DNA of 64,000 bases from Vicinamibacterales bacterium (GTDB lineage: Bacteria; Acidobacteriota; Vicinamibacteria; Vicinamibacterales; UBA2999), in assembly GCA_050187355.1 (NCBI GenBank), contig JBFWXO010000006.1, forward strand, positions 118,584-182,583. The letters run 5' to 3'. Position 1 is the first letter of the stretch. Each line of letters starts with the position of its first letter. The translations under genes and the position numbers were made by a program. Of this stretch, positions 4,656 through 56,958 are shown in pieces. The notes beneath the pieces were generated by a model. That model did no database searches and was not told where the DNA came from. It saw only the letters and a list, made by a program, of their open reading frames with translations.

Positions 4656-5732
4656 TCAACCGCCCGGCGGGCCCTCCGCCACGACGACGCGGTTCCGGCC
4701 CTCGGCCTTGGCCCGGTACAGGGCGTCCGGCTCGCCCGAGAAGGACGCCATGACGGCCACGCCGGCGCTCAGCGTGATCGAGCCCTCCGGCCCGGTCGCG
4801 AGCGCGGCGCGTTCCACCGTCGCGCGCATGCGCTCGGCCAGGAGCGCCGCCTCGGCAATCGACGTCTCGGGCAGCACCACCAGGAACTCCTCGCCGCCCC
4901 AGCGGCCCACCCGGTCGGTCGTGCGCACCACGCTCGTCAGCACGTCGCCCACGGCGCGGATCGTCCGGTCGCCGCTGTCGTGCCCGCGCTCGTCGTTGAC
5001 GCGCTTGAAGTGATCCACGTCGCAGAGCACGAACGCCGTCGGGCGGCCGCCTCGCGACTGCCGCGCCAGCTCGCGGACGGCGAACTCCTCGGTGGCGCGG
5101 CGATTGGGCAGCCCGGTGAGGGCGTCGGTCCGCGCCTCGCGCATGAGCGCCTGCTCGGCCACGAACGCGCGCCGGTTCGTGGCCTCGAACACACGGGCGA
5201 GCATCAGGCCGACGGCAATCGTCAGCGCGAGGAACACGGTGGCGTTGGTGACCGTGAAGCGATCGGCGCCCGCCACCATCATCCCGAGGCCGGCGCCGGC
5301 GAGCGGCACGAGCGTGGTCACCAGGTAGTCGCGGCGGTCGAGCACGATGTAGGGCCCGCCGAGGAACGCCGCGACGAGGCCGGCCAGCCCGATGGTGTAG
5401 CCCTCGCGAACCACCGCGTTGACGGCGGCCACCGCGAGGACGGCGGCCCAGAAGCGGACCTTCGCGATCGCGGGCGCCCACTGTACCGTGCCGGTCGCCC
5501 GCTGCAGCAGGCCGGTCGAGACAATCACGACGGCCGCGGCCACGCGGATGACGAGCGCGGTGCTCCAGGCGGCCGGGTCCACGTACCAGTCCCACAGGCT
5601 GAAGGCCAGGATCAGGCTGGCCGACAGGCCGAAATGGAACACGGACCCGTTCAGCAGCGCGAGGCTCGCCGCGCGCGACGCGATGAACTGCGCCTGGAGG
5701 TCTGAGCCCTCGGCCGGCGCCCGGACTTCCAC
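4656..5732 (-). CDS. Membrane-bound diguanylate cyclase (GGDEF domain)
   Basis: Several TM helices, then DALTGLPNRR, DVDHFKRVND, RxxD I-site (RTTD) and GGEEF. Confidence 0.92.
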   Translation of the reverse strand: MEVRAPAEGSDLQAQFIASRAASLALLNGSVFHFGLSASLILAFSLWDWYVDPAAWSTALVIRVAAAVVIVSTGLLQRATGTVQWAPAIAKVRFWAAVLAVAAVNAVVREGYTIGLAGLVAAFLGGPYIVLDRRDYLVTTLVPLAGAGLGMMVAGADRFTVTNATVFLALTIAVGLMLARVFEATNRRAFVAEQALMREARTDALTGLPNRRATEEFAVRELARQSRGGRPTAFVLCDVDHFKRVNDERGHDSGDRTIRAVGDVLTSVVRTTDRVGRWGGEEFLVVLPETSIAEAALLAERMRATVERAALATGPEGSITLSAGVAVMASFSGEPDALYRAKAEGRNRVVVAEGPPGG

Positions 5733-5734
5733 GG

Positions 5735-7522
5735 TCAGCGCGCCCCCGGGGCGAACGGCGGCGGGGGCCGCCGGTGCCAGTCGGTGGCGCGCTGGTAGGC
5801 GTGGGCCAGGGCGAGCACCGCGGCCTCGCCGAACGGGCGCCCGTGGAAGGTGATGCTCGTCGGGCGTCCCGGGCCGTAGAAGCCGTTCGGCACGGAGAGG
5901 GCCGGCAGTCCGCAGACGTTCGACACGTCGTGGTGATCGCGCGTCAGGTTGCGGGGGCTATCGGGCACGACGCCGCCTCCCGATCCGCCCGGCGGGTTCA
6001 GCGGCGGGTTGTTCGACGGCGCGAGGTACACGTCGAACCGTCCGACGGTGGCGAAATGCTGGCGCATCAGCATCGCGCGGATGCGCTGCGCCTGCAGGTA
6101 CTCCACGGCCGGCACGAGCCGGCCCTGGCGGAAGCCGTTGGCCCGGGTGGGATTGGTGAAGTCCCGGGCGGCACCCGACTGCATCACGTCCTCGAAGTAG
6201 GCGCTCGACTCTGCGCCCACGCCGGCGCCGGCCAGCTCGCTGCGCATGCGCGGCAGCTCGAACGGCTCCAGGCGCACGCCGAGCGCCCGGAGGCTGTCGA
6301 GCGTCGCGTGGTCGTGCGCCGTCCACTCGGCCGTGCGGCCCTCGTCGGCGCCCGTCGGCTCGAGGTAGCCCACCCGCAGCGTGCGGACGTCCATGGCCGC
6401 GTCCCAGTTGACGGGCACGTCCTGCACCGACCCGTCGCGATCGTCCGGTCCGGCGATCGCGCGGAACACGAGCGCGCAATCCTCGGCGGTGCGGCAGATG
6501 GGCCCGATGCGGTCGCGGCTCCACTGCAGCGACATGCACCCGAACCGGCTCACGCGGCCGAAGGTCGGGCGCAGGCCCGTGGCACCGCACCGCGTGGCCG
6601 GGAACAGGATGGACCCACCCGTGTCGGTGCCGATCGCGAACGCCACGAGCCCCGCGGCCGTGGCCGCGGCGGGACCGCACGACGAGCCGCTTGCGCCCTC
6701 GCGCACGTCCCAGGGGTTGTTGGTCCGGCCGCCGAACCAGTACTCGCCCGACGCCATCTCCCCGGTGGAGAGCTTCGCGACCAGCACCGCGCCCGCCTCG
6801 CGCAGCCGCGCGGCCACGGCCGCCTCGGTGTCGATCACGCGGGTCCGGAAGGCCTGGGATCCCCAGGTGGTCGGATAGCCCGGCACGGCCAGGATGTCCT
6901 TGCAGCCCCACGGGATTCCGTGCAGCGGTCCGCGGTGGCGTCCCTCGGCGAGGTCGCGGTCCGCCTGCCGTGCCTGCGCCCGCGCGAGGTCCGTCGTGAG
7001 GGTGATGACGCAGTTGAGGGCGGGCCCGTGGGCGGCGAGCCGCGCCAGGAACAGCTCGGTGAGCTCCACCGACGTCACCTGGCGCGTGCGGATCAGGTGC
7101 GCCAGGTGCAGCACCGGCCAGAACGCGAGATCGTCGAGGCGGCGGGGCCGCGCCAGGCCGGACACCGGCGACGGACGGAAGGGCCGGGCCGCGCGGTCCA
7201 CGCGCATGCCCGGCACGAGCGGGCTGAAGTACAGGGGCGGCGCCACGTCGGGACCGATGGCGAAGGTGCGCCGCTCGACGTAGCGGCGCAGGCTGCCCTG
7301 CACGCCGCGGAGCATCTGGCGCCGCTCGTCCTCGCCGAAGTCGAGGCCCGCCACCGCGAGCGCCGACGCGAGCATCTCCGCGGTGAGCGCGTCCGGCGTG
7401 GGCGCCTGGCCGGCGGTCTGCGCCAGGAGCTTTTCCCACAGCACGCCGGGCAGGAGCGTCGAGGCGAGACCCGCACTGGAGCAGTACTCGAGGAACCGGC
7501 GGCGGGAGGCAGCGAGGCGCAT
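5735..7522 (-). CDS. Amidase-signature family enzyme, Tat-exported
   Basis: SRRRFL signal; GPLHGIPWGCKD, GSSCG and IGTDTGGSI motifs. Confidence 0.9.
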   Translation of the reverse strand: MRLAASRRRFLEYCSSAGLASTLLPGVLWEKLLAQTAGQAPTPDALTAEMLASALAVAGLDFGEDERRQMLRGVQGSLRRYVERRTFAIGPDVAPPLYFSPLVPGMRVDRAARPFRPSPVSGLARPRRLDDLAFWPVLHLAHLIRTRQVTSVELTELFLARLAAHGPALNCVITLTTDLARAQARQADRDLAEGRHRGPLHGIPWGCKDILAVPGYPTTWGSQAFRTRVIDTEAAVAARLREAGAVLVAKLSTGEMASGEYWFGGRTNNPWDVREGASGSSCGPAAATAAGLVAFAIGTDTGGSILFPATRCGATGLRPTFGRVSRFGCMSLQWSRDRIGPICRTAEDCALVFRAIAGPDDRDGSVQDVPVNWDAAMDVRTLRVGYLEPTGADEGRTAEWTAHDHATLDSLRALGVRLEPFELPRMRSELAGAGVGAESSAYFEDVMQSGAARDFTNPTRANGFRQGRLVPAVEYLQAQRIRAMLMRQHFATVGRFDVYLAPSNNPPLNPPGGSGGGVVPDSPRNLTRDHHDVSNVCGLPALSVPNGFYGPGRPTSITFHGRPFGEAAVLALAHAYQRATDWHRRPPPPFAPGAR

Positions 7523-7572: not shown

Positions 7573-10209
7573 CTACGGGGGGCCGGCGAGCGCCGCCGCC
7601 TTGGCGGGCTCGCCGAGCCGGACGTAGATCGAGGCCAAGAGTTCGCGCGCCTCGGCCAGCTCGGATCCGGACGACCCCGACAACGCTCCCAGCATGTCGT
7701 GGGCCGTGGCCACCTCGTCCCGCGCCTCGGACAGGCGCTGCTGCGCGGCCAGCGCGCGGCCCAGCCGCAGGTGGGCGATGGCCGTGTAGCGCTGGCCCGG
7801 CACCACGGCCGACAGCCGGCGGACGGCGTCGCGAAGGATGGGCTCGGCCGTCGCCGCGGCGCCGCGGGCGAGGTGGACCGAGCCCAGGTTCGACAGCTGG
7901 TGCAGGTAGAACTCGTGCTCCTCGCCCACCGTGCCCTTGAAGATCGCGGCGGCCTCCTGGAACGCGGCCTCGGCCTCGCCGAATCGCCGCCGGTCGCGCG
8001 CCAGATCGCCCATGAGGCTCAGCACCGCGGCAACCCGGGGGTGGCGGGCGCCGTACACCTTCGTGTATTCGTCGCGCGCCTGGACGTACATCGCGCCGGC
8101 CTCGTCGGGCCGCTGCAGGTAGGCGAGGGTCCGGCCCAGCATGAGCACGTTCTGCGCGGTCTTGGGATGATGCGGCCCGTACCACTCCTCGTTGATCGTC
8201 CGGGCGTCGCGATACAGCGCCTCGGCCCCGGCATAGTCGCCGCGGTCGAGCGCGAGATTGCCGAGATTGAAGAGATCAATCGCGACGTAGGGATGGCGGC
8301 TGCCGAAGAGCGACCGGTCGAGCGCGAGCGCACGGGAGTTGAGATCCAGGGCGGCGGCGGCGTGACCCAGGTAGTACTCGGTGTTGGCCAGGACGCCGAT
8401 GGCCTCCGACAGCTCCGGGGACGGCGGATGCGTCGACAGCTCGTCGATCGCGTCCCGGAGCAGCTCGGCGGCGGCGGCGTAGTCGCCGCGATCGGCCAGC
8501 ACCCGGCCGACCACGGACTGGGCGGCCGCAACTTCGACCGGGTCGGCCGCGGCCCGCGCGGTCGCCAGCCGCAGGGCCTCGCGGGCCAGGCGCTCCGCCT
8601 CGTCGTAGCTGGACTCCTCGGCTCGAAGGGCGGCCAGGGCCAGCTGGGTGCGGAGGGTCCTCGGGTCGTCCGCCCCGAGACGCGCACGCTGCGTGTCGAG
8701 CGCGGCCCCCAGCAGGGGACCCGCGCGGTCCACGTGTCCGAGCTTGTGGTACAGCCCACCGAACGTGGAGCGAAGCTCCGCCTGCAGGTCGGGCTCGTCG
8801 TCGAGGCCCTCGGCTTCCCGGACGCCGCGGTCGAGCAGTTCCGCCACGCGCAGCCCGCCGGACGGTCCGGCGGCGGTGTCGTCGCCGTCGAACAGGTTCA
8901 GCATCAGCCGATGGATCCGTTCGAGCTCGGCCCGCGACGAGACCGCCGCGTCGCGGGCGGCGACCAGACGCAGCGTGAACCCCACACTGAGCGCCAGGAT
9001 GGTCGCGGCGACGGCACCGGCAATCGCCAGGGTGCGGCGGTTGCGGCGCAGGTATTTCCGGATGCGGTAGGTACTCGGTGTCAGGGTCCGCGCCAGGAGC
9101 GGCTCGTGCCGCTCGAAGCGTTCGAGGTCGCCGAGGAGAGCCTCGGCTGACGCGTAGCGCTCCACCTTGTCGCGATGCACGGCCGTCAGGCAGATGGCGT
9201 CGAGATCCTGCCACTCGTTCCGTGAGGCCTGCACGGCCGAGTCGAGGCGTTCCGCGGCGCGGACCGAGGGGCGGACCGGCGGGTCGACGAGCGCCCGCGC
9301 CATCTCGACGGGGCCGAGCCCGGCGAACTCCACGGGCGGCCGGCCCGTCAGCAGCTCGTACAGCAGCGCGCCGAGGGCGTGGACGTCGCTCTGGACGTCC
9401 AGGACGTCTCCGCGAATCTGCTCCGGCGAGGCGTAGTTGAGCGACAGCCGGCGATGGCCCGTGGCCGTCCGTTCGACCGCGGCTCCCGCCTCGGTCAGGT
9501 GGCGGGCGACGCCGAAGTCCACGAGCTTCACGTCGCCCGCGTCGGTCACGAGGATGTTCGACGGCTTCAGGTCCAGGTGGACGACCAGGTTGCGATGCGC
9601 GTAGCTCACGGCCTGGCAGACGCGGCTGAAGAGATCCAGCCGCTGTCTCAGGTCGAGTCCGCGCGCGGTGGCGTGGGCCACCAGGCTGCGGCCGGCCACG
9701 TACTCCATCGCGAACCACGGCCGCTCGTGCGAGACCCCGGCGTCGAAGAGCCTGGCGATGGACGGGTGGTTGAGGCTCGCCAGCGTCCGCTGCTCGCTGG
9801 CGAACCGGTCGCGGGCCGCGGGACTCCACGCATCGTGCAGGAACTTGACGGCCACGACGTCGCCGAGTCCGTCCCGCCGGGCCAGGTACACCGATCCCAT
9901 GCCGCCTTCACCGAGGTAGCCTGAGATCACGTAGTGTCCGAACTGCTGCGGCAGGGTCGACGGCCCGTCGGGAGCCAGCTCCGCGGCGAGCACGCGCGGG
10001 TCCTGGTCCAGCAAGGCCGAGCCCGACCGATCCGCGCGCAGCAGCGCATCGACGCGCGCCGCGACCGCGGCCTCGGCATCCATGAGGGCGGCGAGGCGCC
10101 GTTCCTGTTCGGCCGCGGGCAGATCGGCCAGCTCCTCGAAGAGAGCGGACACCCTCGCGTGGAAGTCGGTGTCGGCGGCGTCGGCGGGTGGGTTGGGCTC
10201 CGCGGCCAT
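7573..10209 (-). CDS. Membrane Ser/Thr protein kinase with C-terminal TPR repeats
   Basis: LGEGGMGSVY, VAVK, HLDLKPSNIL, DFG and YASPEQ motifs; one TM helix; TPR repeats. Start moved to MAAEPN. Confidence 0.9.
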   Translation of the reverse strand: MAAEPNPPADAADTDFHARVSALFEELADLPAAEQERRLAALMDAEAAVAARVDALLRADRSGSALLDQDPRVLAAELAPDGPSTLPQQFGHYVISGYLGEGGMGSVYLARRDGLGDVVAVKFLHDAWSPAARDRFASEQRTLASLNHPSIARLFDAGVSHERPWFAMEYVAGRSLVAHATARGLDLRQRLDLFSRVCQAVSYAHRNLVVHLDLKPSNILVTDAGDVKLVDFGVARHLTEAGAAVERTATGHRRLSLNYASPEQIRGDVLDVQSDVHALGALLYELLTGRPPVEFAGLGPVEMARALVDPPVRPSVRAAERLDSAVQASRNEWQDLDAICLTAVHRDKVERYASAEALLGDLERFERHEPLLARTLTPSTYRIRKYLRRNRRTLAIAGAVAATILALSVGFTLRLVAARDAAVSSRAELERIHRLMLNLFDGDDTAAGPSGGLRVAELLDRGVREAEGLDDEPDLQAELRSTFGGLYHKLGHVDRAGPLLGAALDTQRARLGADDPRTLRTQLALAALRAEESSYDEAERLAREALRLATARAAADPVEVAAAQSVVGRVLADRGDYAAAAELLRDAIDELSTHPPSPELSEAIGVLANTEYYLGHAAAALDLNSRALALDRSLFGSRHPYVAIDLFNLGNLALDRGDYAGAEALYRDARTINEEWYGPHHPKTAQNVLMLGRTLAYLQRPDEAGAMYVQARDEYTKVYGARHPRVAAVLSLMGDLARDRRRFGEAEAAFQEAAAIFKGTVGEEHEFYLHQLSNLGSVHLARGAAATAEPILRDAVRRLSAVVPGQRYTAIAHLRLGRALAAQQRLSEARDEVATAHDMLGALSGSSGSELAEARELLASIYVRLGEPAKAAALAGPP

Positions 10210-50106: not shown

Positions 50107-51264
50107 CTACGAGGCCGTGCGCGCGCGCAGGTAGGCGGCCACGGCGGGCTGCTGGCCGTACTCGGCCCAGCCGAGGGGCGTCCCGTTCCACAACGCATCG
50201 CGGATGTCGAGCCTGGCGCCGCGGTCGACGAGCAACTCGACCACGGCCAGATGTCCGCCGAGGGCCGCCTGATGCAGCGGCGTGGCGTGCGCGTGGAACC
50301 CCTCGGGGTTGCGCCGGTCGGGACGCTCCCCCGCGTCCAGCAGCCGTCGAACGACCTCGACGTGTCCGAGCTGCGCCGCCAGGGCGAACGCGGCGTGGCG
50401 ATCGGCGGCCGTGGCACCGGGCAGGAGATCGTCCACGGCGGCCAGCCGGCCGAGCCCCGCGGCCGTCACCAGCCGGTCGACGCGGGCGCCACGACTGACG
50501 AGCGCGTCAGCGGCCTCGGCGAACCCGAAGACGAGCGCGGTCTGCACGGGTGAGCGCCACTGGCCCTCGCCGCCGCCCTCGACGTCCGCTCCGGCATCGA
50601 CGAGGGCGTGAACCAGCGGCACCTGGACGCCGGCGTCGGCCGGCGGCGTGCTCGAGACGAGCATGGGCAGCGTGGGACAGGTGCCGCCGTACATGCCGGC
50701 GAGCGCGTTCGGATCGACGCCCGCGCCGAACAGCCGCTGCGCCACGGCGACCGCGTTGGACGGCGACACCTGGCGATAGCCTTCGACGCCGTTGGCCGCC
50801 AGGTAGTGGAGGAGCGTGGCACCGTGGACGGGCGGGTCGTGCGGCGTCACGCGCGTGGACCGCGCGCGCACCAGATCCGGGTGGGCGTGAAGCAGGCGAT
50901 CGAGCGCGTCCAGGTCGCCTGACACGACGGCGTCGACCGCCAGCTCGAAGGCCCCGACCGGCGAGCCGTCCCGCCGGACGTCGGCGACGAGTGCCGACAG
51001 CGCGTCCCAGTCGCGGAAGGAGTAGCGGCGCGCAAGGGCGAGGCGCGCGTCGTCGAGGTCGAGCGCGGCGGCCGCGATCTCGTCGGGGGCGAGCCTGCGC
51101 GGCTTCCAGGAGACGACGGGATCCAGGAAGCGCGGATGGCGTTCGTGGAACAGCCGGATCGCCGGCAGTTCACCGCGGCGGTGTGCGTCGAGCAGCGCGC
51201 CGGCCTGCGCCTCGTACTCCGCGAGCGGCGCAAGCGGCGGCAGCGGTTCCCAGGCCCAGGGCAT
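50107..51264 (-). CDS. Ankyrin-repeat protein
   Basis: GATLLHY, TPLHQAALGGH and GTPLGWA motifs. Confidence 0.9.
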   Translation of the reverse strand: MPWAWEPLPPLAPLAEYEAQAGALLDAHRRGELPAIRLFHERHPRFLDPVVSWKPRRLAPDEIAAAALDLDDARLALARRYSFRDWDALSALVADVRRDGSPVGAFELAVDAVVSGDLDALDRLLHAHPDLVRARSTRVTPHDPPVHGATLLHYLAANGVEGYRQVSPSNAVAVAQRLFGAGVDPNALAGMYGGTCPTLPMLVSSTPPADAGVQVPLVHALVDAGADVEGGGEGQWRSPVQTALVFGFAEAADALVSRGARVDRLVTAAGLGRLAAVDDLLPGATAADRHAAFALAAQLGHVEVVRRLLDAGERPDRRNPEGFHAHATPLHQAALGGHLAVVELLVDRGARLDIRDALWNGTPLGWAEYGQQPAVAAYLRARTAS

Positions 51265-51353
51265 GGCGTCCGATCGCGAGCATACCCGACAGAACGGACC
51301 GGGCAATGCCGCCCGGCGGCGCGATCCGCCGCCACCGGGGCGCGGAGACACGA

Positions 51354-51384
51354 AGGGCCCGGCGGGGTGTTCCCACCGGGCCCT
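51354..51384 (-). terminator. Probable intrinsic terminator
   Basis: 13-bp stem AGGGCCCGGTGGG / CCCGCCGGGCCCT (one G-U) followed by TCGTGTCT on the minus strand, downstream of 51452. Confidence 0.6.
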
Positions 51385-51403
51385 CATCGTGACAGCGTGT
51401 CAG

Positions 51404-51451: not shown

Positions 51452-52774
51452 CTACCGTTCCCGCTCCTCGGTCGTCGCCGTGGCCTTGCGCTTGGCCTGC
51501 TCCGCCTTGAACTCCTCGTCGTTCATGTAGACGATGTTGATCCAGGCGTGCGCCATCTCGTCCACGGTGCGATCGCCCCAGCCCACCCACTGGTTCGGAT
51601 CCGGATTGGTCTTCTTGGCCGTCGTGTTGTCGTGCCACGACGTGACCTTGAGCAGCGTGCCCTTCGGCAGGAGCGGCGCCACGTCGTCCGCGTAGACGAA
51701 CGTGGTCATCCACTGGAAGTTGAAGTTGTCGACGTGGCTCAGCACCTGGCGCTGGCCGGTCGGCAGGATCGCCTCCACCATCATCGCCTTGCCGCGCAGG
51801 TGCATGTGGGGCTGGAAGCTCTCGATGCGCGCGTTCTCACGCAGCGGGTAAAAGCCCTCGGTCACGGTGACGGCGTTCGGACGGAGGTCCAGGTTGCCCA
51901 GCGCCGCCGGCACGAGCGACAGCCGGTTGCGGTACTTCGGCTCCTGGCCCTTCGGGTAGAGGTAGATGCCCATCTCGACGTTGCTGGTGATCTCCTCACC
52001 GGCCTGCGAGTAATGGATGTCCCAGCGGAACCGCGAGCCGGGCAGGAGGAGCTTGCCCGTGTCGGGACGCATCATCTCGCCCTGCTTGCCGACGGCCCAT
52101 TCCATGAACGGCGCCGGCAGACCCGGCATGGCGCCCGGCTCGTCCTGCTCGAGGTAGGCGATGGCGTGGTGGGTGATCTTGCGGCCCTTGATCGAGTTGG
52201 GCCGGATCTCGATGGCGCGGACCCAGCGCGGCTCGGTGATGCCCGACGGCGTCACGCGCTTGTCCCAGGCGTCCTGCGCGACGGCCGGCATCGTGTAGGA
52301 GTCGGACTTGATGATGATGTCCGGCTCGTCCTGCCCGAAGACCTTCGCGAAGTTCCAGCCCTGGTCGCTCGGCCACTCGACGGGCGGCGGCATGTCCTTC
52401 GGGTTGCCCTGCGGCGCGCCGGCGTCCACCCATTTCACGATCGTGTCGAGGTCCTCGGGCGACAGCGAGTCGTCGTTCTTGAACTTCGTCACGCCCACCG
52501 TCCGGTCGATCTGGAACGGCGGCATGGAGTGCTCCGTCACCCGCGCCTTGATCGACCGCGCCCACGGCCGCGCCTGCTGCCAGGTCTGCAGCGACATCGG
52601 CGCGATCGAGTCCGGCCGGTGGCAGGCCTCGCACTTCTTCTGGAAGATGGGCGCGACGTCCTTGGTGAACGTGGGCCCCTGCGCCGCCGCCGCGCCTGGA
52701 ACGCCGATCACCGCGGCGACCACGAGCGCCCCTGTCGTGCCCCCCACCCAGCCGAGCGATTGACGGTTCATCAT
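51452..52774 (-). CDS. Secreted cytochrome c plus copper type II (PHM/DBH-like) monooxygenase fusion
   Basis: Signal peptide; CEACH...MPP; HH, DIHY, QPHMHLRGK, FNFQW and DEM motifs. Confidence 0.8.
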   Translation of the reverse strand: MMNRQSLGWVGGTTGALVVAAVIGVPGAAAAQGPTFTKDVAPIFQKKCEACHRPDSIAPMSLQTWQQARPWARSIKARVTEHSMPPFQIDRTVGVTKFKNDDSLSPEDLDTIVKWVDAGAPQGNPKDMPPPVEWPSDQGWNFAKVFGQDEPDIIIKSDSYTMPAVAQDAWDKRVTPSGITEPRWVRAIEIRPNSIKGRKITHHAIAYLEQDEPGAMPGLPAPFMEWAVGKQGEMMRPDTGKLLLPGSRFRWDIHYSQAGEEITSNVEMGIYLYPKGQEPKYRNRLSLVPAALGNLDLRPNAVTVTEGFYPLRENARIESFQPHMHLRGKAMMVEAILPTGQRQVLSHVDNFNFQWMTTFVYADDVAPLLPKGTLLKVTSWHDNTTAKKTNPDPNQWVGWGDRTVDEMAHAWINIVYMNDEEFKAEQAKRKATATTEERER

Positions 52775-52787
52775 CAGGCTCCTGTCG

Positions 52788-53657
52788 TCACTTCACGGTG
52801 ACTTTCACGTAGGCGTTGGTCCAGCAGCACTGGAAGCCGGCGCCGCCCTCCCCCGAGTCGTCGTTCGCCTGCACGCGCACGAGGTATTCGCCGGGACGGT
52901 CGAACGTGGCCTGCGCGGTCACGGTCTCGCCCTGGGTCTTCACTTCGATCCGGTCCGGTTCGAACTTCACCGCGCCGGGGCCGCGGAACTTGTGGAACGA
53001 GAGGTTGGCGACCAGGCCGGCCGTCCGGCGGGCCGTCAGATCCGACCCCTTCTTCACTTCTTTCGGATCCGTCACGGAAAACGCGATGGCCACCGGCTGG
53101 CCGACGGTCCCGCTATAGCTGGCTGCCACGGTGGTGGGCGGTCCGAACACCTTGGTGCCGGTCGCCGTGAAGGTGAGCTCGGGGGGCTTGTTGCCCATGC
53201 CCGACTCCTGGAAGGGCTCGATCGTGTAGCCCTTCGCCACGCCGAGCGGGATCGACTGCGTCTCGCCGTTGGCCGTGATCGTCCACGTGAGGGTCTTCGA
53301 CCCGATGTCCTTCGGCACGCGGATGACGAAGACGCCCCACTCGCGGCCGACCTCGAAATGCGTGGGCTGTCCCTGATCGGCGGGGCCGGGTTCGATCTTG
53401 TTGTTGGGCCCGATCGGAATGTCGAGCGCCTGCTCGCGGTTGCGGTTGAAATAGCCGACGAGCAGGCTGAAGCTGCCGTCGGGATTCTCGTACCAGCCTT
53501 CGAACGCGGGCGTCACGCTGGAGCCGCGCGCGCGGGCGGGGTCGAGGGGCATCGGCTGCGGCGTCTGGGGCGCCTGGGCGACCAGGCTGACTCCGGCCAC
53601 GACGGCCAGGAGCGCCGGGAACGCCACGGCGCCGTGGACCGGGCTGAACCTGCGCAT
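52788..53657 (-). CDS. Secreted hypothetical protein with C-terminal vicinal Cys (QCCW)
   Basis: Signal peptide; PAFEGWYENPDGSF..GYFNRN; Ig-like C-terminus; 13-bp gap to the monooxygenase gene. Confidence 0.8.
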   Translation of the reverse strand: MRRFSPVHGAVAFPALLAVVAGVSLVAQAPQTPQPMPLDPARARGSSVTPAFEGWYENPDGSFSLLVGYFNRNREQALDIPIGPNNKIEPGPADQGQPTHFEVGREWGVFVIRVPKDIGSKTLTWTITANGETQSIPLGVAKGYTIEPFQESGMGNKPPELTFTATGTKVFGPPTTVAASYSGTVGQPVAIAFSVTDPKEVKKGSDLTARRTAGLVANLSFHKFRGPGAVKFEPDRIEVKTQGETVTAQATFDRPGEYLVRVQANDDSGEGGAGFQCCWTNAYVKVTVK

Positions 53658-54466: not shown

Positions 54467-54615
54467 GGCTCGAGGCTCCGCGGTGAGAGACGGCGGCCAC
54501 GATACCATTCGGCGCGCGGCGCGGGGGGCGGCGCGGAAATGCGCCGGACGCGGCCGTCTCTTGCAGAGGGCGCGCGCGGCGCGTGGGCGCCGGGCCCCGG
54601 GCGCGAGGAGCAGTC

Positions 54616-56958
54616 ATGGCCAAGGCAGCGACAGCACGGCGGTCTCCGGCGGCACGACGCAGGGTCGCGGCAAAGGCCGCCGCGGGGGACGCCTCCCGGC
54701 CGCTGGTCCTCTACATCCACGGCGTCGGCCGCCACAAGCCGGTGGACGAGCTGAAGGCCGAGTGGGACCTCGCCCTCTTCGGCAGCGACCGGGGCGACGC
54801 CACCCGCATGGCGTACTGGTCGGACATCGTGCATCCGCCCGCCGCGGCCAAGAAGGGATCGAAGAAGGTCACGCGCGCGGCCGACGAGCCGACCGGCGAC
54901 GTCGCGGAGCAGGCCCTGAACGACGCCGGCGTCTCGTCGAAGGCGGCCGGCGCCTACGCCGAGGCGATCGCCGCGATGCTGGGGGCCCCGCCGGACACCA
55001 CGCGCCGCCCGGGCAAGAAGGTGCTGCCGCTGCCGCGGTTCCTGCGAAAGCCCGTCTCGGCGGCGTTCCTCAAGGCCTTCATCGGCGACACGGCGGCCTA
55101 CTTCTTCGACACCGGGAAGCGGCGGCGGATCCGCGAGCGGTTCCAGGACGTCCTCCCCGACGACGGGCGGCCGCTCACGGTCGTGGCGCACAGCCAGGGA
55201 TCGATCGTCGCGCTGGAGGTGCTCGCCGCCCTGGGCGCGGCAGTGAACGTCGTGAAGTTCGTCACGATCGGGTCGCCGCTGGGCCTGCAGGAGGTGCAGG
55301 ACTTCCTCGACGTCCGGCCCGGACGCAAGCCCTTCGACATCCCGGGCGGCGTCGAGCAGTGGCACAACTTCGCCGATCCGCTGGATCCGGTGGCCCTCGA
55401 CAAGGGGCTGCGCGGCGAGTTCGGCCGGCCCCGGGACGCGAACCCGCCGCGGCCGCTCATCGTCGACGACCTCGTCGTCAACGACGGCTCGCGGAAGCTG
55501 ATCGGCTTCAACCCGCACTCCGCGATCGGCTATCTGGCGCATCCCAAGGTGCGGCGCAGCGTCCACGAGGGCGCGCAGTTCGATTCCATGGCGCGGTTCG
55601 TCGTCGCGCGCGACGTGGCGGAGGGCCTGGCGGTGGAGGGCCGGCAGCCCGTGATCATCGAACTCCTCGAGCCCGGCTACTGGGCGCTCGGCGAGAAGGG
55701 GCCGGAGCTGGAGGCGCGGGAGGACCGCGAGCGGCAGGCCCACGGCGAGATCACGCTGGCCGACCGCGTCGAGCGCGCCGCGGCCCAGATCGGCGACGTC
55801 GTGCGACGGATGGCCCGCGCCGACGGCCGCGATCCGGACCAGGCCGAGACCGACGCCCGGATCGACCCCCTGCGGCGCTTCGTCGCGGCCCGGCTGACCC
55901 CGGACGAGGTCCGGCAGGTCGCCGTCGAGCACAAGTCCTTCAACGTCTACGCGGTGTGGAAGAGCTCGTCGAAGAAGAAGCTCATCGCGCGTTCGCAGGC
56001 CGTCCTCCAGGTGGACGCCGCCCGCGGCAGCTACGGCGCCCGCGGCGGCGGCATCGTGTGGGCGGTGCTGGACACGGGGGTCCGCTCGGATCACGCGCAC
56101 TTCAAGAACGGCACGATTCAGGCCGTCTGGGACTGCACCGCGCGCGGCGCGCCCAAGCGGCTGAAGGCCGACACGGACAGGGACGGTCACGGGTCGCACG
56201 TGTCGGGCATCATCGCCGGCGAAAGCCGGCACGACGGCACCGTGTTCGCGGGCATGGCGCCCGACGCCCGCCTCGTCGTCTACAAGGTGCTCGACGACAA
56301 CGGCCAGGGCGAGGACGCGTGGATCATCAAGGCGCTCGACCACATCGCGCGGCAGAACGAGAACGCCGCGGGCCAGGTGATCCACGGGATCAACCTCAGC
56401 CTGGGCGGACCGTACGACTCCACGGTGTACGGGTGCGGGTTCACGCCGATCTGCCAGGAACTGCGCCGGCAATGGCGGGCGGGCGTGGTCGTGGTGGTGG
56501 CGTGCGGCAACGAAGGGCAGCTCGACGTGCAGACCAGCGACGGGGAGGTGGAGATCAACACCTCGATGTCGATTGGGGATCCCGCCAACCTCGAGGACTG
56601 CATCGCCGTGGGGTCGGTGAACGCCGACAAGCCGCACCTGTACGGGGTGTCGCCCTTCTCGTCGCGCGGCCCGACCTCCGACGGGCGGCTCAAGCCGGAC
56701 GTCGTGGCGCCGGGCGAGCGGATCATGTCGGTGAACTCGCGCAGCAAGACCGATTACCGCGTCGAGAGCGGCACGAGCATGGCGGCGCCGCACGTGTCGG
56801 GGATGCTGGCGGCGTTCCTCTCGGCGCGCCGGGAGTTCCGCGGGCGTCCCGACGACGTGAAGCGCATCCTCATGGACGCCTGCACGGACATCGGACGCGA
56901 CCGCTACCACCAGGGCCGCGGCATCCCGAACCTGATGCGGATGCTCCTCAGCGTCTGA
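54616..56958 (+). CDS. Cytoplasmic alpha/beta-hydrolase plus S8 (subtilisin) serine peptidase fusion
   Basis: N-terminal IHGVG, AHSQGS, TIGSPLG, DPLDPVA and NPHS; C-terminal LDTG, HGSH, ACGN and GTSMAAP; SD GAGGAG; no signal peptide. Confidence 0.9.
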   Translation: MAKAATARRSPAARRRVAAKAAAGDASRPLVLYIHGVGRHKPVDELKAEWDLALFGSDRGDATRMAYWSDIVHPPAAAKKGSKKVTRAADEPTGDVAEQALNDAGVSSKAAGAYAEAIAAMLGAPPDTTRRPGKKVLPLPRFLRKPVSAAFLKAFIGDTAAYFFDTGKRRRIRERFQDVLPDDGRPLTVVAHSQGSIVALEVLAALGAAVNVVKFVTIGSPLGLQEVQDFLDVRPGRKPFDIPGGVEQWHNFADPLDPVALDKGLRGEFGRPRDANPPRPLIVDDLVVNDGSRKLIGFNPHSAIGYLAHPKVRRSVHEGAQFDSMARFVVARDVAEGLAVEGRQPVIIELLEPGYWALGEKGPELEAREDRERQAHGEITLADRVERAAAQIGDVVRRMARADGRDPDQAETDARIDPLRRFVAARLTPDEVRQVAVEHKSFNVYAVWKSSSKKKLIARSQAVLQVDAARGSYGARGGGIVWAVLDTGVRSDHAHFKNGTIQAVWDCTARGAPKRLKADTDRDGHGSHVSGIIAGESRHDGTVFAGMAPDARLVVYKVLDDNGQGEDAWIIKALDHIARQNENAAGQVIHGINLSLGGPYDSTVYGCGFTPICQELRRQWRAGVVVVVACGNEGQLDVQTSDGEVEINTSMSIGDPANLEDCIAVGSVNADKPHLYGVSPFSSRGPTSDGRLKPDVVAPGERIMSVNSRSKTDYRVESGTSMAAPHVSGMLAAFLSARREFRGRPDDVKRILMDACTDIGRDRYHQGRGIPNLMRMLLSV

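Follow-up and report, generated by a model that had tools for sequence, protein, structure and literature searches.

A gene for an alpha/beta-hydrolase fused to a subtilisin-type (S8) protease was analyzed in a 64,000-nucleotide stretch of a contig from a Vicinamibacterales bacterium (the window; all coordinates are positions in it). Judged by sequence comparison, the N-terminal domain of the 780-residue product is a member of the protease-associated alpha/beta-hydrolase zymogen family, to which the cleavage-activated, toxic LcHydrolase of Lysobacter capsici belongs. The family identity and the architecture of the fusion are well supported. On balance the protein is read as a protease-gated hydrolase zymogen module in a cis-fused form without a sensor, in which a lipase-like enzyme and its S8 protease would share one chain, and we consider this reading somewhat probable. 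The parts of the gene are as follows, with residues numbered in the protein.

54616..56958, + strand: whole gene, 780 codons and stop; basic tail, alpha/beta-hydrolase, I9-like propeptide, S8 protease
54616..54699, + strand: basic, hydrophilic N-terminal tail, residues 1-28, not a signal peptide
54700..55635, + strand: alpha/beta-hydrolase domain of the protease-associated zymogen family, residues 29-340, with the HG oxyanion motif H35-G36
54850..54885, + strand: candidate cleavage loop 1, residues 79-90, KKGSKKVTRAAD, modelled at low confidence and aligned with the R73|G site of caspase-linked homologs
54901..54981, + strand: helical hairpin, residues 96-122, central part of a putatively inhibitory middle piece about 50 residues long
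55006..55035, + strand: candidate cleavage loop 2, residues 131-140, RPGKKVLPLP, aligned with R117|G; conserved K-[KR]-V-L-P-L-P
55192..55194, + strand: hydrolase nucleophile S193 in AHSQGS
55384..55386, + strand: hydrolase acid D257 (D254 is likewise invariant in close homologs)
55516..55518, + strand: hydrolase histidine H301
55645..55983, + strand: I9-like subtilisin propeptide, residues 344-456, with an extra helical insertion (about residues 355-415)
55972..55983, + strand: propeptide/mature junction motif K453-K-K-L456; family consensus K-R-K-L
55984..56955, + strand: S8 catalytic domain, residues 457-780, with D486, H525, N632 and S721

LcHydrolase is reported to be cut by a caspase-like partner at R73|G and R117|G into fragments of 8.1, 4.7 and 19.8 kDa, of which the N- and C-terminal ones together kill E. 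coli; its substrate is described as not known (Evans et al., bioRxiv 14 Nov 2025, PMC12642450). Caspase-like domains in such systems were earlier described as always paired with an alpha/beta-hydrolase gene (Kaur et al. 2020, eLife, PMC7159879). The profile of the window family matched two stand-alone hydrolases with both sites in place: L144h (caspase-linked, 296 residues; E 2.8e-39), which carries K73-G74 together with R117-G118 and whose fragments are predicted at 8.0, 4.7 and 19.7 kDa, and L149h (E 1.7e-40), with R73-G74 and R118-G119. Pairwise BLASTP with the window domain alone gave E 1e-11 for L144h; for L147h, which is trypsin-linked, it gave E 4e-21, the match spanning residues 29-316. 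Because of these profile and pairwise matches the N-terminal domain was assigned to the LcHydrolase-type zymogen family, and the protease linkage that goes with that family is found here as an S8 domain in the same chain. The LcHydrolase-LcCaspase pair shares with the window protein the hydrolase family, the linked protease and the lipase-like fold. The layout is also the same: HG strand, loop, fragment of about 45-50 residues, loop, lid helix and GxSxG. There are also differences from the published description. The protease is a caspase in L. capsici and an S8 enzyme with an I9-type propeptide in the window protein; the window protease lies in the same chain, C-terminal to the hydrolase, whereas LcHydrolase and LcCaspase are separate genes; and the loop motifs are of the K-[KR]-x-L type rather than R|G.

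An earlier note, made from the sequence of this stretch, had described an insertion of about 80 residues in the hydrolase, bounded by basic flexible segments. Both segments were recovered as poorly modelled loops at the homologous sites, with a predicted local distance difference test (pLDDT) score below 50 at residues 84-90 and 124-135 and helices 96-103 and 109-122 between them. The piece that would be excised is more likely to be of about 50 residues (roughly 85-136) than of 80, the distance between the loops being about 49-53 residues or 4.8-5.3 kDa. In the multiple alignment the second published site (ER|GPQNW) and the trypsin-type ER|[VI]PLPWF fall on G133-K-K-V-L-P-L-P140, with R117|G at K135-V136-L137-PLP. 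The first published site (R73|G) falls near K83-K-V-T-R87, at about R87; because loop 1 aligns poorly, this position is good to a few residues only. Loop 1 is rich in lysine and arginine, with a dibasic pair in 72 of 120 close homologs.

The second loop (KKVL|P) had also been likened in the earlier note to the KKKL junction in front of the protease, and the likeness held in a survey of 121 close and 28 distant homologs. At the second site [KR]-x-[LIVM]-P-[LFI]-P is kept in 116 close and 16 distant homologs. Among the close homologs K134 is found in 91, lysine or arginine at 135 in 118, V136 in 99, L137 in 109, P138 in 119, L139 in 118 and P140 in all 121. At the junction K-[KR]-x-[LIVM] is kept in 79 close and 23 distant homologs, and the wider K-x-x-[LIVM] in 117 of the close ones (K453 in 120, arginine or lysine at 454 in 81, K455 in 117, L456 in 118). 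Because of the residue conservation at both places, the second site and the junction are taken to share a K-[KR]-x-L signature.

As modelled, the N-terminal domain has an alpha/beta-hydrolase fold with the conserved Ser-Asp-His triad S193, D257 and H301. Pfam alpha/beta-hydrolase matches to residues 172-260 stayed below threshold (Abhydrolase_6, 18.3 against a cut-off of 26.3). The AlphaFold2 (AF2) model of the whole protein had a pLDDT of 80.2 and a predicted template modelling score (pTM) of 0.83, with low confidence at residues 84-90, 124-135, 456-463 and some S8 loops; the N-terminal domain modelled alone reached a pLDDT of 82.9. A Foldseek search of the latter model against the PDB returned nothing at E<=1e-3, lipases and cutinases being the best matches. 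VIA-align matched it to many alpha/beta-hydrolases at Z 11-13.8, the best being lysosomal phospholipase A2 (4x90; Z 13.8, 180 residues, root-mean-square deviation 3.2); YdeN, PPT2, lipases and the DDHD domain of Nir2 were among the others. Only 165-190 of about 295 residues aligned to these canonical hydrolases, and for this reason the stretch that separates the second strand (63-67) from the nucleophile strand (187-192) was regarded as family-specific. It includes the two flexible loops around the hairpin 96-122, the LPLP motif and a long helix, 141-164.

The C-terminal domain is assigned to the S8 peptidases by its ordered Asp-His-Ser triad, its oxyanion asparagine and its PF00082 score (residues 478-761, 169.9 bits, cut-off 21.8), and it is the most conserved part of the fusion. 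The prodomain-like linker that the earlier note had placed in front of it is supported by structure comparison. The top Foldseek matches of the full model were the unprocessed pro-subtilisins ProN-Tk-SP (3afg), pro-subtilisin E (3whi) and pro-Tk-subtilisin (2e1p), which aligned over propeptide and catalytic domain in 450-490 columns, compared with about 315 for mature enzymes. Residues 344-456 are read as a probable I9-like propeptide because of these longer alignments; a Pfam scan of the 780-residue protein gave no I9 match. The triad and oxyanion asparagine of the pro-subtilisins are kept. Unlike those secreted enzymes, the window protein lacks a signal peptide, and it has an extra helical propeptide insertion of about 55 residues and a 340-residue hydrolase in front. 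In an ungapped phmmer alignment residue 469 corresponds to BPN' residue 15; since BPN' residue 1 thereby extrapolates to residue 455, K453-K-K-L456 lies at the expected point of propeptide removal. The extra stretch comprises helices 362-376 and 381-402, and the last propeptide strand is 452-455.

The propeptide insertion itself (residues 355-415, window 55678-55860) is charged, helical and about 55 residues long, with a pLDDT of about 95. Classical subtilisin propeptides are much shorter and are not known to carry such a helical insertion. It may be a regulatory element.

The reading frame 54583-56958 is open on the forward strand, in local DNA of 70-75% G+C, and the ATG at 54616, which gives 780 residues, agrees with the start of P0002, a homolog of 93% identity. 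The motif positions listed in the earlier note were all correct, namely AHSQGS (residues 191-196), DPLDPVA (254-260) and NPHS (299-302) in the hydrolase, DTG (486-488), HGSH (525-528) and GTSM (719-722) in the protease and KKKL (453-456) at the junction. Both catalytic triads are intact: H35, G36, H192, G195, D254, D257, H301, D486, H525, N632 and S721 are invariant in 75 aligned homologs, and S193 is conserved in at least 90% of them. A signal peptide, which the note had not seen, was not found here either. A 10-residue hydrophobic window was absent from the N-terminal tails of 118 of the 119 homologs with a recognisable first strand, and the 119 tails had a median length of 25 residues with 25% lysine and arginine. 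Because the tails are basic and lack such a window, the fusion protein is cytoplasmic as far as sequence can tell. A basic tail rich in A, R, K, T and S is present in nearly all homologs, its length ranging from 1 to 73 residues.

The hydrolase family was found with several kinds of protease. A whole-library search with residues 1-345 gave 1867 clusters at E<=1e-3, and among the best 149 of these, which were scanned for domains, 45 were joined in one chain to a protease domain, S8 in 42 (P0182 also with C11), trypsin in two and S41 in one. P0184 joins the hydrolase to trypsin, P0234 to trypsin and the endonuclease NucA, and P0206 to S41; the other 104 matches are mostly short and may be fragments. 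A profile of the N-terminal domain (A3, 46 sequences) also found stand-alone Xanthomonadaceae proteins of 291-354 residues at E 1e-36 to 1e-78. Stand-alone homologs in complete genomes have two kinds of neighbour. A TPR-S plus Trypsin_2 gene directly follows the stand-alone hydrolase in L106, L107, L147 and L152, and in L148 a TPR-S protein lies farther downstream, past a gap. In L145, L149, L150 and L151 a protein of 600-840 residues lies directly upstream. These four proteins (alignment A4) are considered caspase-like because they carry SGHG...DAC motifs and match metacaspase-4 weakly (E 4e-4). A tree of 37 hydrolase domains (MAFFT and FastTree, 326 columns, midpoint root) placed the caspase-linked and the TPR-S-trypsin-linked hydrolases in one clade each (support 1.0 for both) and the window domain with two Planctomycetota sequences (0.97). 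The hydrolase family thus recurs with unrelated protease folds, fused to S8, trypsin, S41 and C11 domains or adjoining TPR-S-trypsin or caspase-like genes.

Two side observations were made on these loci. In L146 a hydrolase-only relative of the fused clade (5305-6357, 351 residues) has neither the S8 part nor the LPLP motif, and may be a decayed or truncated copy. In L107 a gene of phage-lysozyme type (8182-8805, GH108 and PG_binding_3) stands directly upstream of the hydrolase/TPR-S-trypsin pair.

The earlier note had proposed a cytoplasmic protease joined to a latent hydrolase that is opened by cuts on either side of an insertion. Apart from the size of about 80 residues, this mechanism is supported by homology, because the N-terminal domain falls in a family with a twice-cut toxic zymogen and its loops lie at the homologous cut positions. 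We infer from relatives that S8 would make the cuts, that the cut product would be toxic and that the module would have a trigger and serve in defence, and likewise which bonds are cut and what the substrate is. In the proposed sequence the hydrolase would be a zymogen, kept inactive by the segment of about 50 residues (85-136) between the two flexible basic loops, and the S8 protease would be restrained by an I9-type propeptide of its own; S452-K455, at the end of this propeptide, forms a strand in the model, as in pro-subtilisins. A trigger would lead to release of the propeptide after autocleavage at about K453-L456. The freed S8 site would then cut both hydrolase loops, probably between molecules, the second loop bearing the junction-like signature. 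The pieces would refold into an active hydrolase that would harm the cell, probably by acting on a lipid or ester, and the outcome would be growth arrest or death, as in abortive infection.

Proline at P1' is unfavourable for subtilisins and argues against L|P, the bond marked in the earlier note, as the bond cut at the second site. From the sequence, K|V and V|L fit equally well as alternatives, with V|L homologous in position to R|G. A candidate bond that fits at the junction is K455|L456, where the modelled strand ends.

Several known systems resemble parts of this arrangement. In the gated MBL pro-nuclease/protease pairs described by Tuck et al. (Science 2025, PMC12799240) and Evans et al. 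(PMC12642450), two insertions are likewise cut by the partner protease, which unmasks the enzyme; their effector is a DNase, unlike the window hydrolase, and Hachiman, Avs, Lamassu or DRT sensors are joined to their protease. An S8-linked MBL clade is described by Evans et al. (PMC12642450), and a relative of the window S8 adjoins such an MBL protein in L036. Fungal HET-Q2, a subtilisin-type protease, likewise unlocks a latent death effector, the gasdermin HET-Q1, by cleavage, in that case a pore-forming effector in a eukaryotic system of two separate proteins (Clave et al. 2022, PMC8851545). The trypsin-NucA proteins called 'System 3' by Kaur et al. (2020, PMC7159879) carry protease and effector in a single chain, as the window protein does; unlike in it, the protease is trypsin-like and the effector is a nuclease. 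Such proteins adjoin the fused gene in L003, L018 and L019, and P0234 joins a window-type hydrolase to trypsin and NucA. The IetAS system, an ATPase with an S8 protease, also places S8 in a defence setting. The window S8 was rejected as an IetS: PADLOC IetS profiles match it at no more than 48 bits, compared with 389.6 for the real IetS in L020, and an IetA-type ATPase was absent among the scanned window open reading frames on either side. The PADLOC profile 'subtilase' (PDLC03014) matched residues 384-773 at 209.9 bits; the library names no system for it.

No account of a hydrolase-propeptide-S8 single chain was found in the literature, as far as the main texts go; figures or supplements may show one. 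In the available texts of Evans, Tuck and Kaur the word 'subtilase' does not occur, and the three passages in Evans et al. with 'subtilisin' concern MBL clades. Protease-gated zymogen effectors were first described in late 2025, in every case as a two-gene module whose protease carries a sensor. The mechanism is already published for two-gene, sensor-linked modules (PMC12642450; PMC12799240 for MBL nucleases), and the one-chain S8 form would be a new variant of that theme.

The S8 clade was also seen in other pairings. A split module on contig C17 of the same genome (L086, 6635-9677, - strand) consists of a 'propeptide + S8' protein of 507-596 residues and a hydrolase-like protein, and the same module is present in L027, L028, L029, L031 and L032 and on plasmid pRL11 (L154, 4476-7490). 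Its S8 belongs to the same clade, with 51% identity to residues 558-778. The partner, which directly follows, has 430-450 residues with HG and GHS[LF]G motifs about 240 residues apart, is called 'hypothetical' in pRL11, and is probably another protease-gated hydrolase. The partners (A2) and the fused N-terminal domains (A3) were not treated as one family, because hhalign matched the nucleophile elbow only, with a probability of 14%. In L036 (6903-10029) the gene after a relative of the window S8 encodes an MBL-fold protein with matches to PADLOC LmuA (8.5e-46), RTasMBL and Avs1a, a pair that corresponds to the S8-linked MBL pairing described by Evans et al. (PMC12642450).

A search with the full-length protein gave 647 proteins at E<=1e-3 among 8000 candidates. 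The 120 homologs listed of these are nearly all of 730-846 residues with 55-93% identity, and the nearest of the matches listed (93%) carries the name of a Vicinamibacterales metagenome-assembled genome. In species-representative genomes 28 full-length loci of 38-51% identity were found, in Planctomycetota, Acidobacteriota, Gamma-, Beta-, Alpha- and Deltaproteobacteria, Cyanobacteria, Ignavibacteria, Zixibacteria and Verrucomicrobia. Within the genus 7 of 19 genomes have a full-length copy, at 39-47% identity save one at 93%, and across the phylum the N-terminal domain profile finds a match in 17 of 401 genomes. In Xanthomonadaceae the profile was matched in 72 of 400 genomes (a count that includes the unpublished G514), in about 47 of them as the fusion. 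The fusion gene is accessory and patchy in its distribution.

The genes around the fused gene in the window encode a RibD_C protein, an amidase, an ankyrin protein, an OmpR/TPR regulator, TerC, LysR and an N-acetyltransferase; they are of housekeeping type, and the lack of a defence island remarked on in the earlier note was confirmed. On the reverse strand at 51452-53657 lie two adjacent genes without a Pfam match, for a protein of 440 residues with a CxxCH haem motif and one of 289 residues with a hydrophobic, signal-like N-terminal segment; the pair adjoins the ankyrin-repeat gene at 50107-51387. At the homologs, 106 open reading frames flanking the 28 full-length loci were surveyed. Single-chain Trypsin_2 plus Endonuclease_NS (trypsin-NucA) proteins adjoin the fused gene in three of the 28 (L003, 412-2562; L018, 5104-7587; L019, 6080-7981), their trypsin part matching the PADLOC 'nacht' profile PDLC03010. 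Trypsin genes are among the flanking frames in L026 and an antidote gene in L013. The neighbourhood evidence for a defence role is suggestive at best.

A number of observations weigh against a gated defence module. No known defence system is present among the window neighbours, and the look for defence enrichment around homologs that the earlier note had pointed to gave a weak result, with known systems within two genes in only 2 of the 28 loci (PD-Lambda-1 in L012; IetA and IetS in L020). The remaining flanking frames look like housekeeping genes, and no neighbour gene shared beyond close relatives was found across the 28 loci. The second-site motif is absent in 12 of the 28 distant orthologs. 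In published LcHydrolase-type modules, as described, a sensor is fused to the protease; the 780-residue protein has none of the kind (WD40, STAND, TPR-S), Pfam, NCBIfam and PADLOC having found no further domain such as STAND, WD40 or TPR in it and the NCBIfam scan nothing above cut-offs. A full-length copy was absent from 72,556 plasmids and an N-terminal domain match from 50,697 phage records. The protein is strongly conserved, at 55-73% identity over hundreds of homologs, and the fused gene is common in Xanthomonadaceae and syntenic there beside smpB (about 47 of 400 genomes); conservation and synteny of this kind would suit a stable cellular function. In three of these Xanthomonadaceae loci (L009, L023, L030) the second-site LPLP is lacking and the junction K-R-A-L kept, and in L023 an integrase fragment lies upstream of the fused gene.

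The main rival explanation, which that synteny and the bland surroundings in the window and at most of the 28 loci keep alive, is that the protein serves the cell as a stable housekeeping or stress enzyme. In this view an intracellular esterase or lipase would be joined to an intracellular subtilisin for protein or lipid turnover, with the propeptide acting as a folding chaperone only and the insertion as an ordinary lid. The high conservation, the frequency in Xanthomonadaceae, the missing sensor and the presence of intracellular subtilisins among the PDB sequence matches would all agree with it. However, this hydrolase family is specifically protease-linked, has a toxic zymogen as a member and recurs with four unrelated protease folds; the distribution is patchy, with divergent relatives within the genus, and a loop that otherwise varies keeps a cleavage-like motif. 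A housekeeping role is regarded as rather unlikely. A second explanation is that the S8 protease is itself the effector and degrades host or phage proteins, the hydrolase being a regulator or a second, independent effector. A caspase-like protease that has no effector partner was still phage-protective according to Evans et al. (PMC12642450), and S8 is the best conserved part of the protein; against this, the hydrolase triad is conserved too, and the positions of the gate loops are homologous to sites of proven cleavage. The S8-effector explanation is considered quite improbable. An exported interbacterial lipase toxin (Tle-like and delivered by a type VI secretion system (T6SS), or a polymorphic toxin) processed by its own protease is very improbable: weak Pfam Tle3 matches (E 0.075 for the window protein, 3.6e-5 for P0126, 3.2e-6 for P0135), a precomputed PF24322 match for 4 among the 120 homologs listed and one stand-alone homolog near a TssG gene (L153) are set against a window Tle3 (PF24322) score of 13 bits with a cut-off of 27, the absence of a signal peptide, the absence of PAAR, VgrG and Rhs domains in Pfam and NCBIfam scans and the absence of T6SS genes among the 106 neighbouring frames.

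The cis-fused zymogen module could be taken further. The single polypeptide might be a complete immune or suicide switch without an NTPase or repeat sensor, in which the propeptide insertion (about residues 355-415) or the basic N-terminal tail would serve as sensor or bait. The propeptide would be removed on infection, for instance by a protease or an inhibitor from the phage or through proteotoxic stress, and S8 would then excise the gate from its own hydrolase. This extension is considered unlikely; if true, protease-effector modules would have a new sensing mode, and soil bacteria would widely hold a minimal abortive-infection system made of one gene.

For the family, the fusion places the predicted zymogen with a different protease class, S8 with its classical propeptide, in one chain with no recognisable sensor, in an arrangement that is abundant (647 matches; about 47 of 400 Xanthomonadaceae genomes). 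If the protein is a protease-gated zymogen, the module would be portable across protease folds, and the one-protein form would be a simple model for studying activation. It would also raise the question of what triggers a module without a sensor, and it would give a function to many genes whose present annotation is no more than 'S8 family peptidase' or 'pimeloyl-ACP methyl ester carboxylesterase'.

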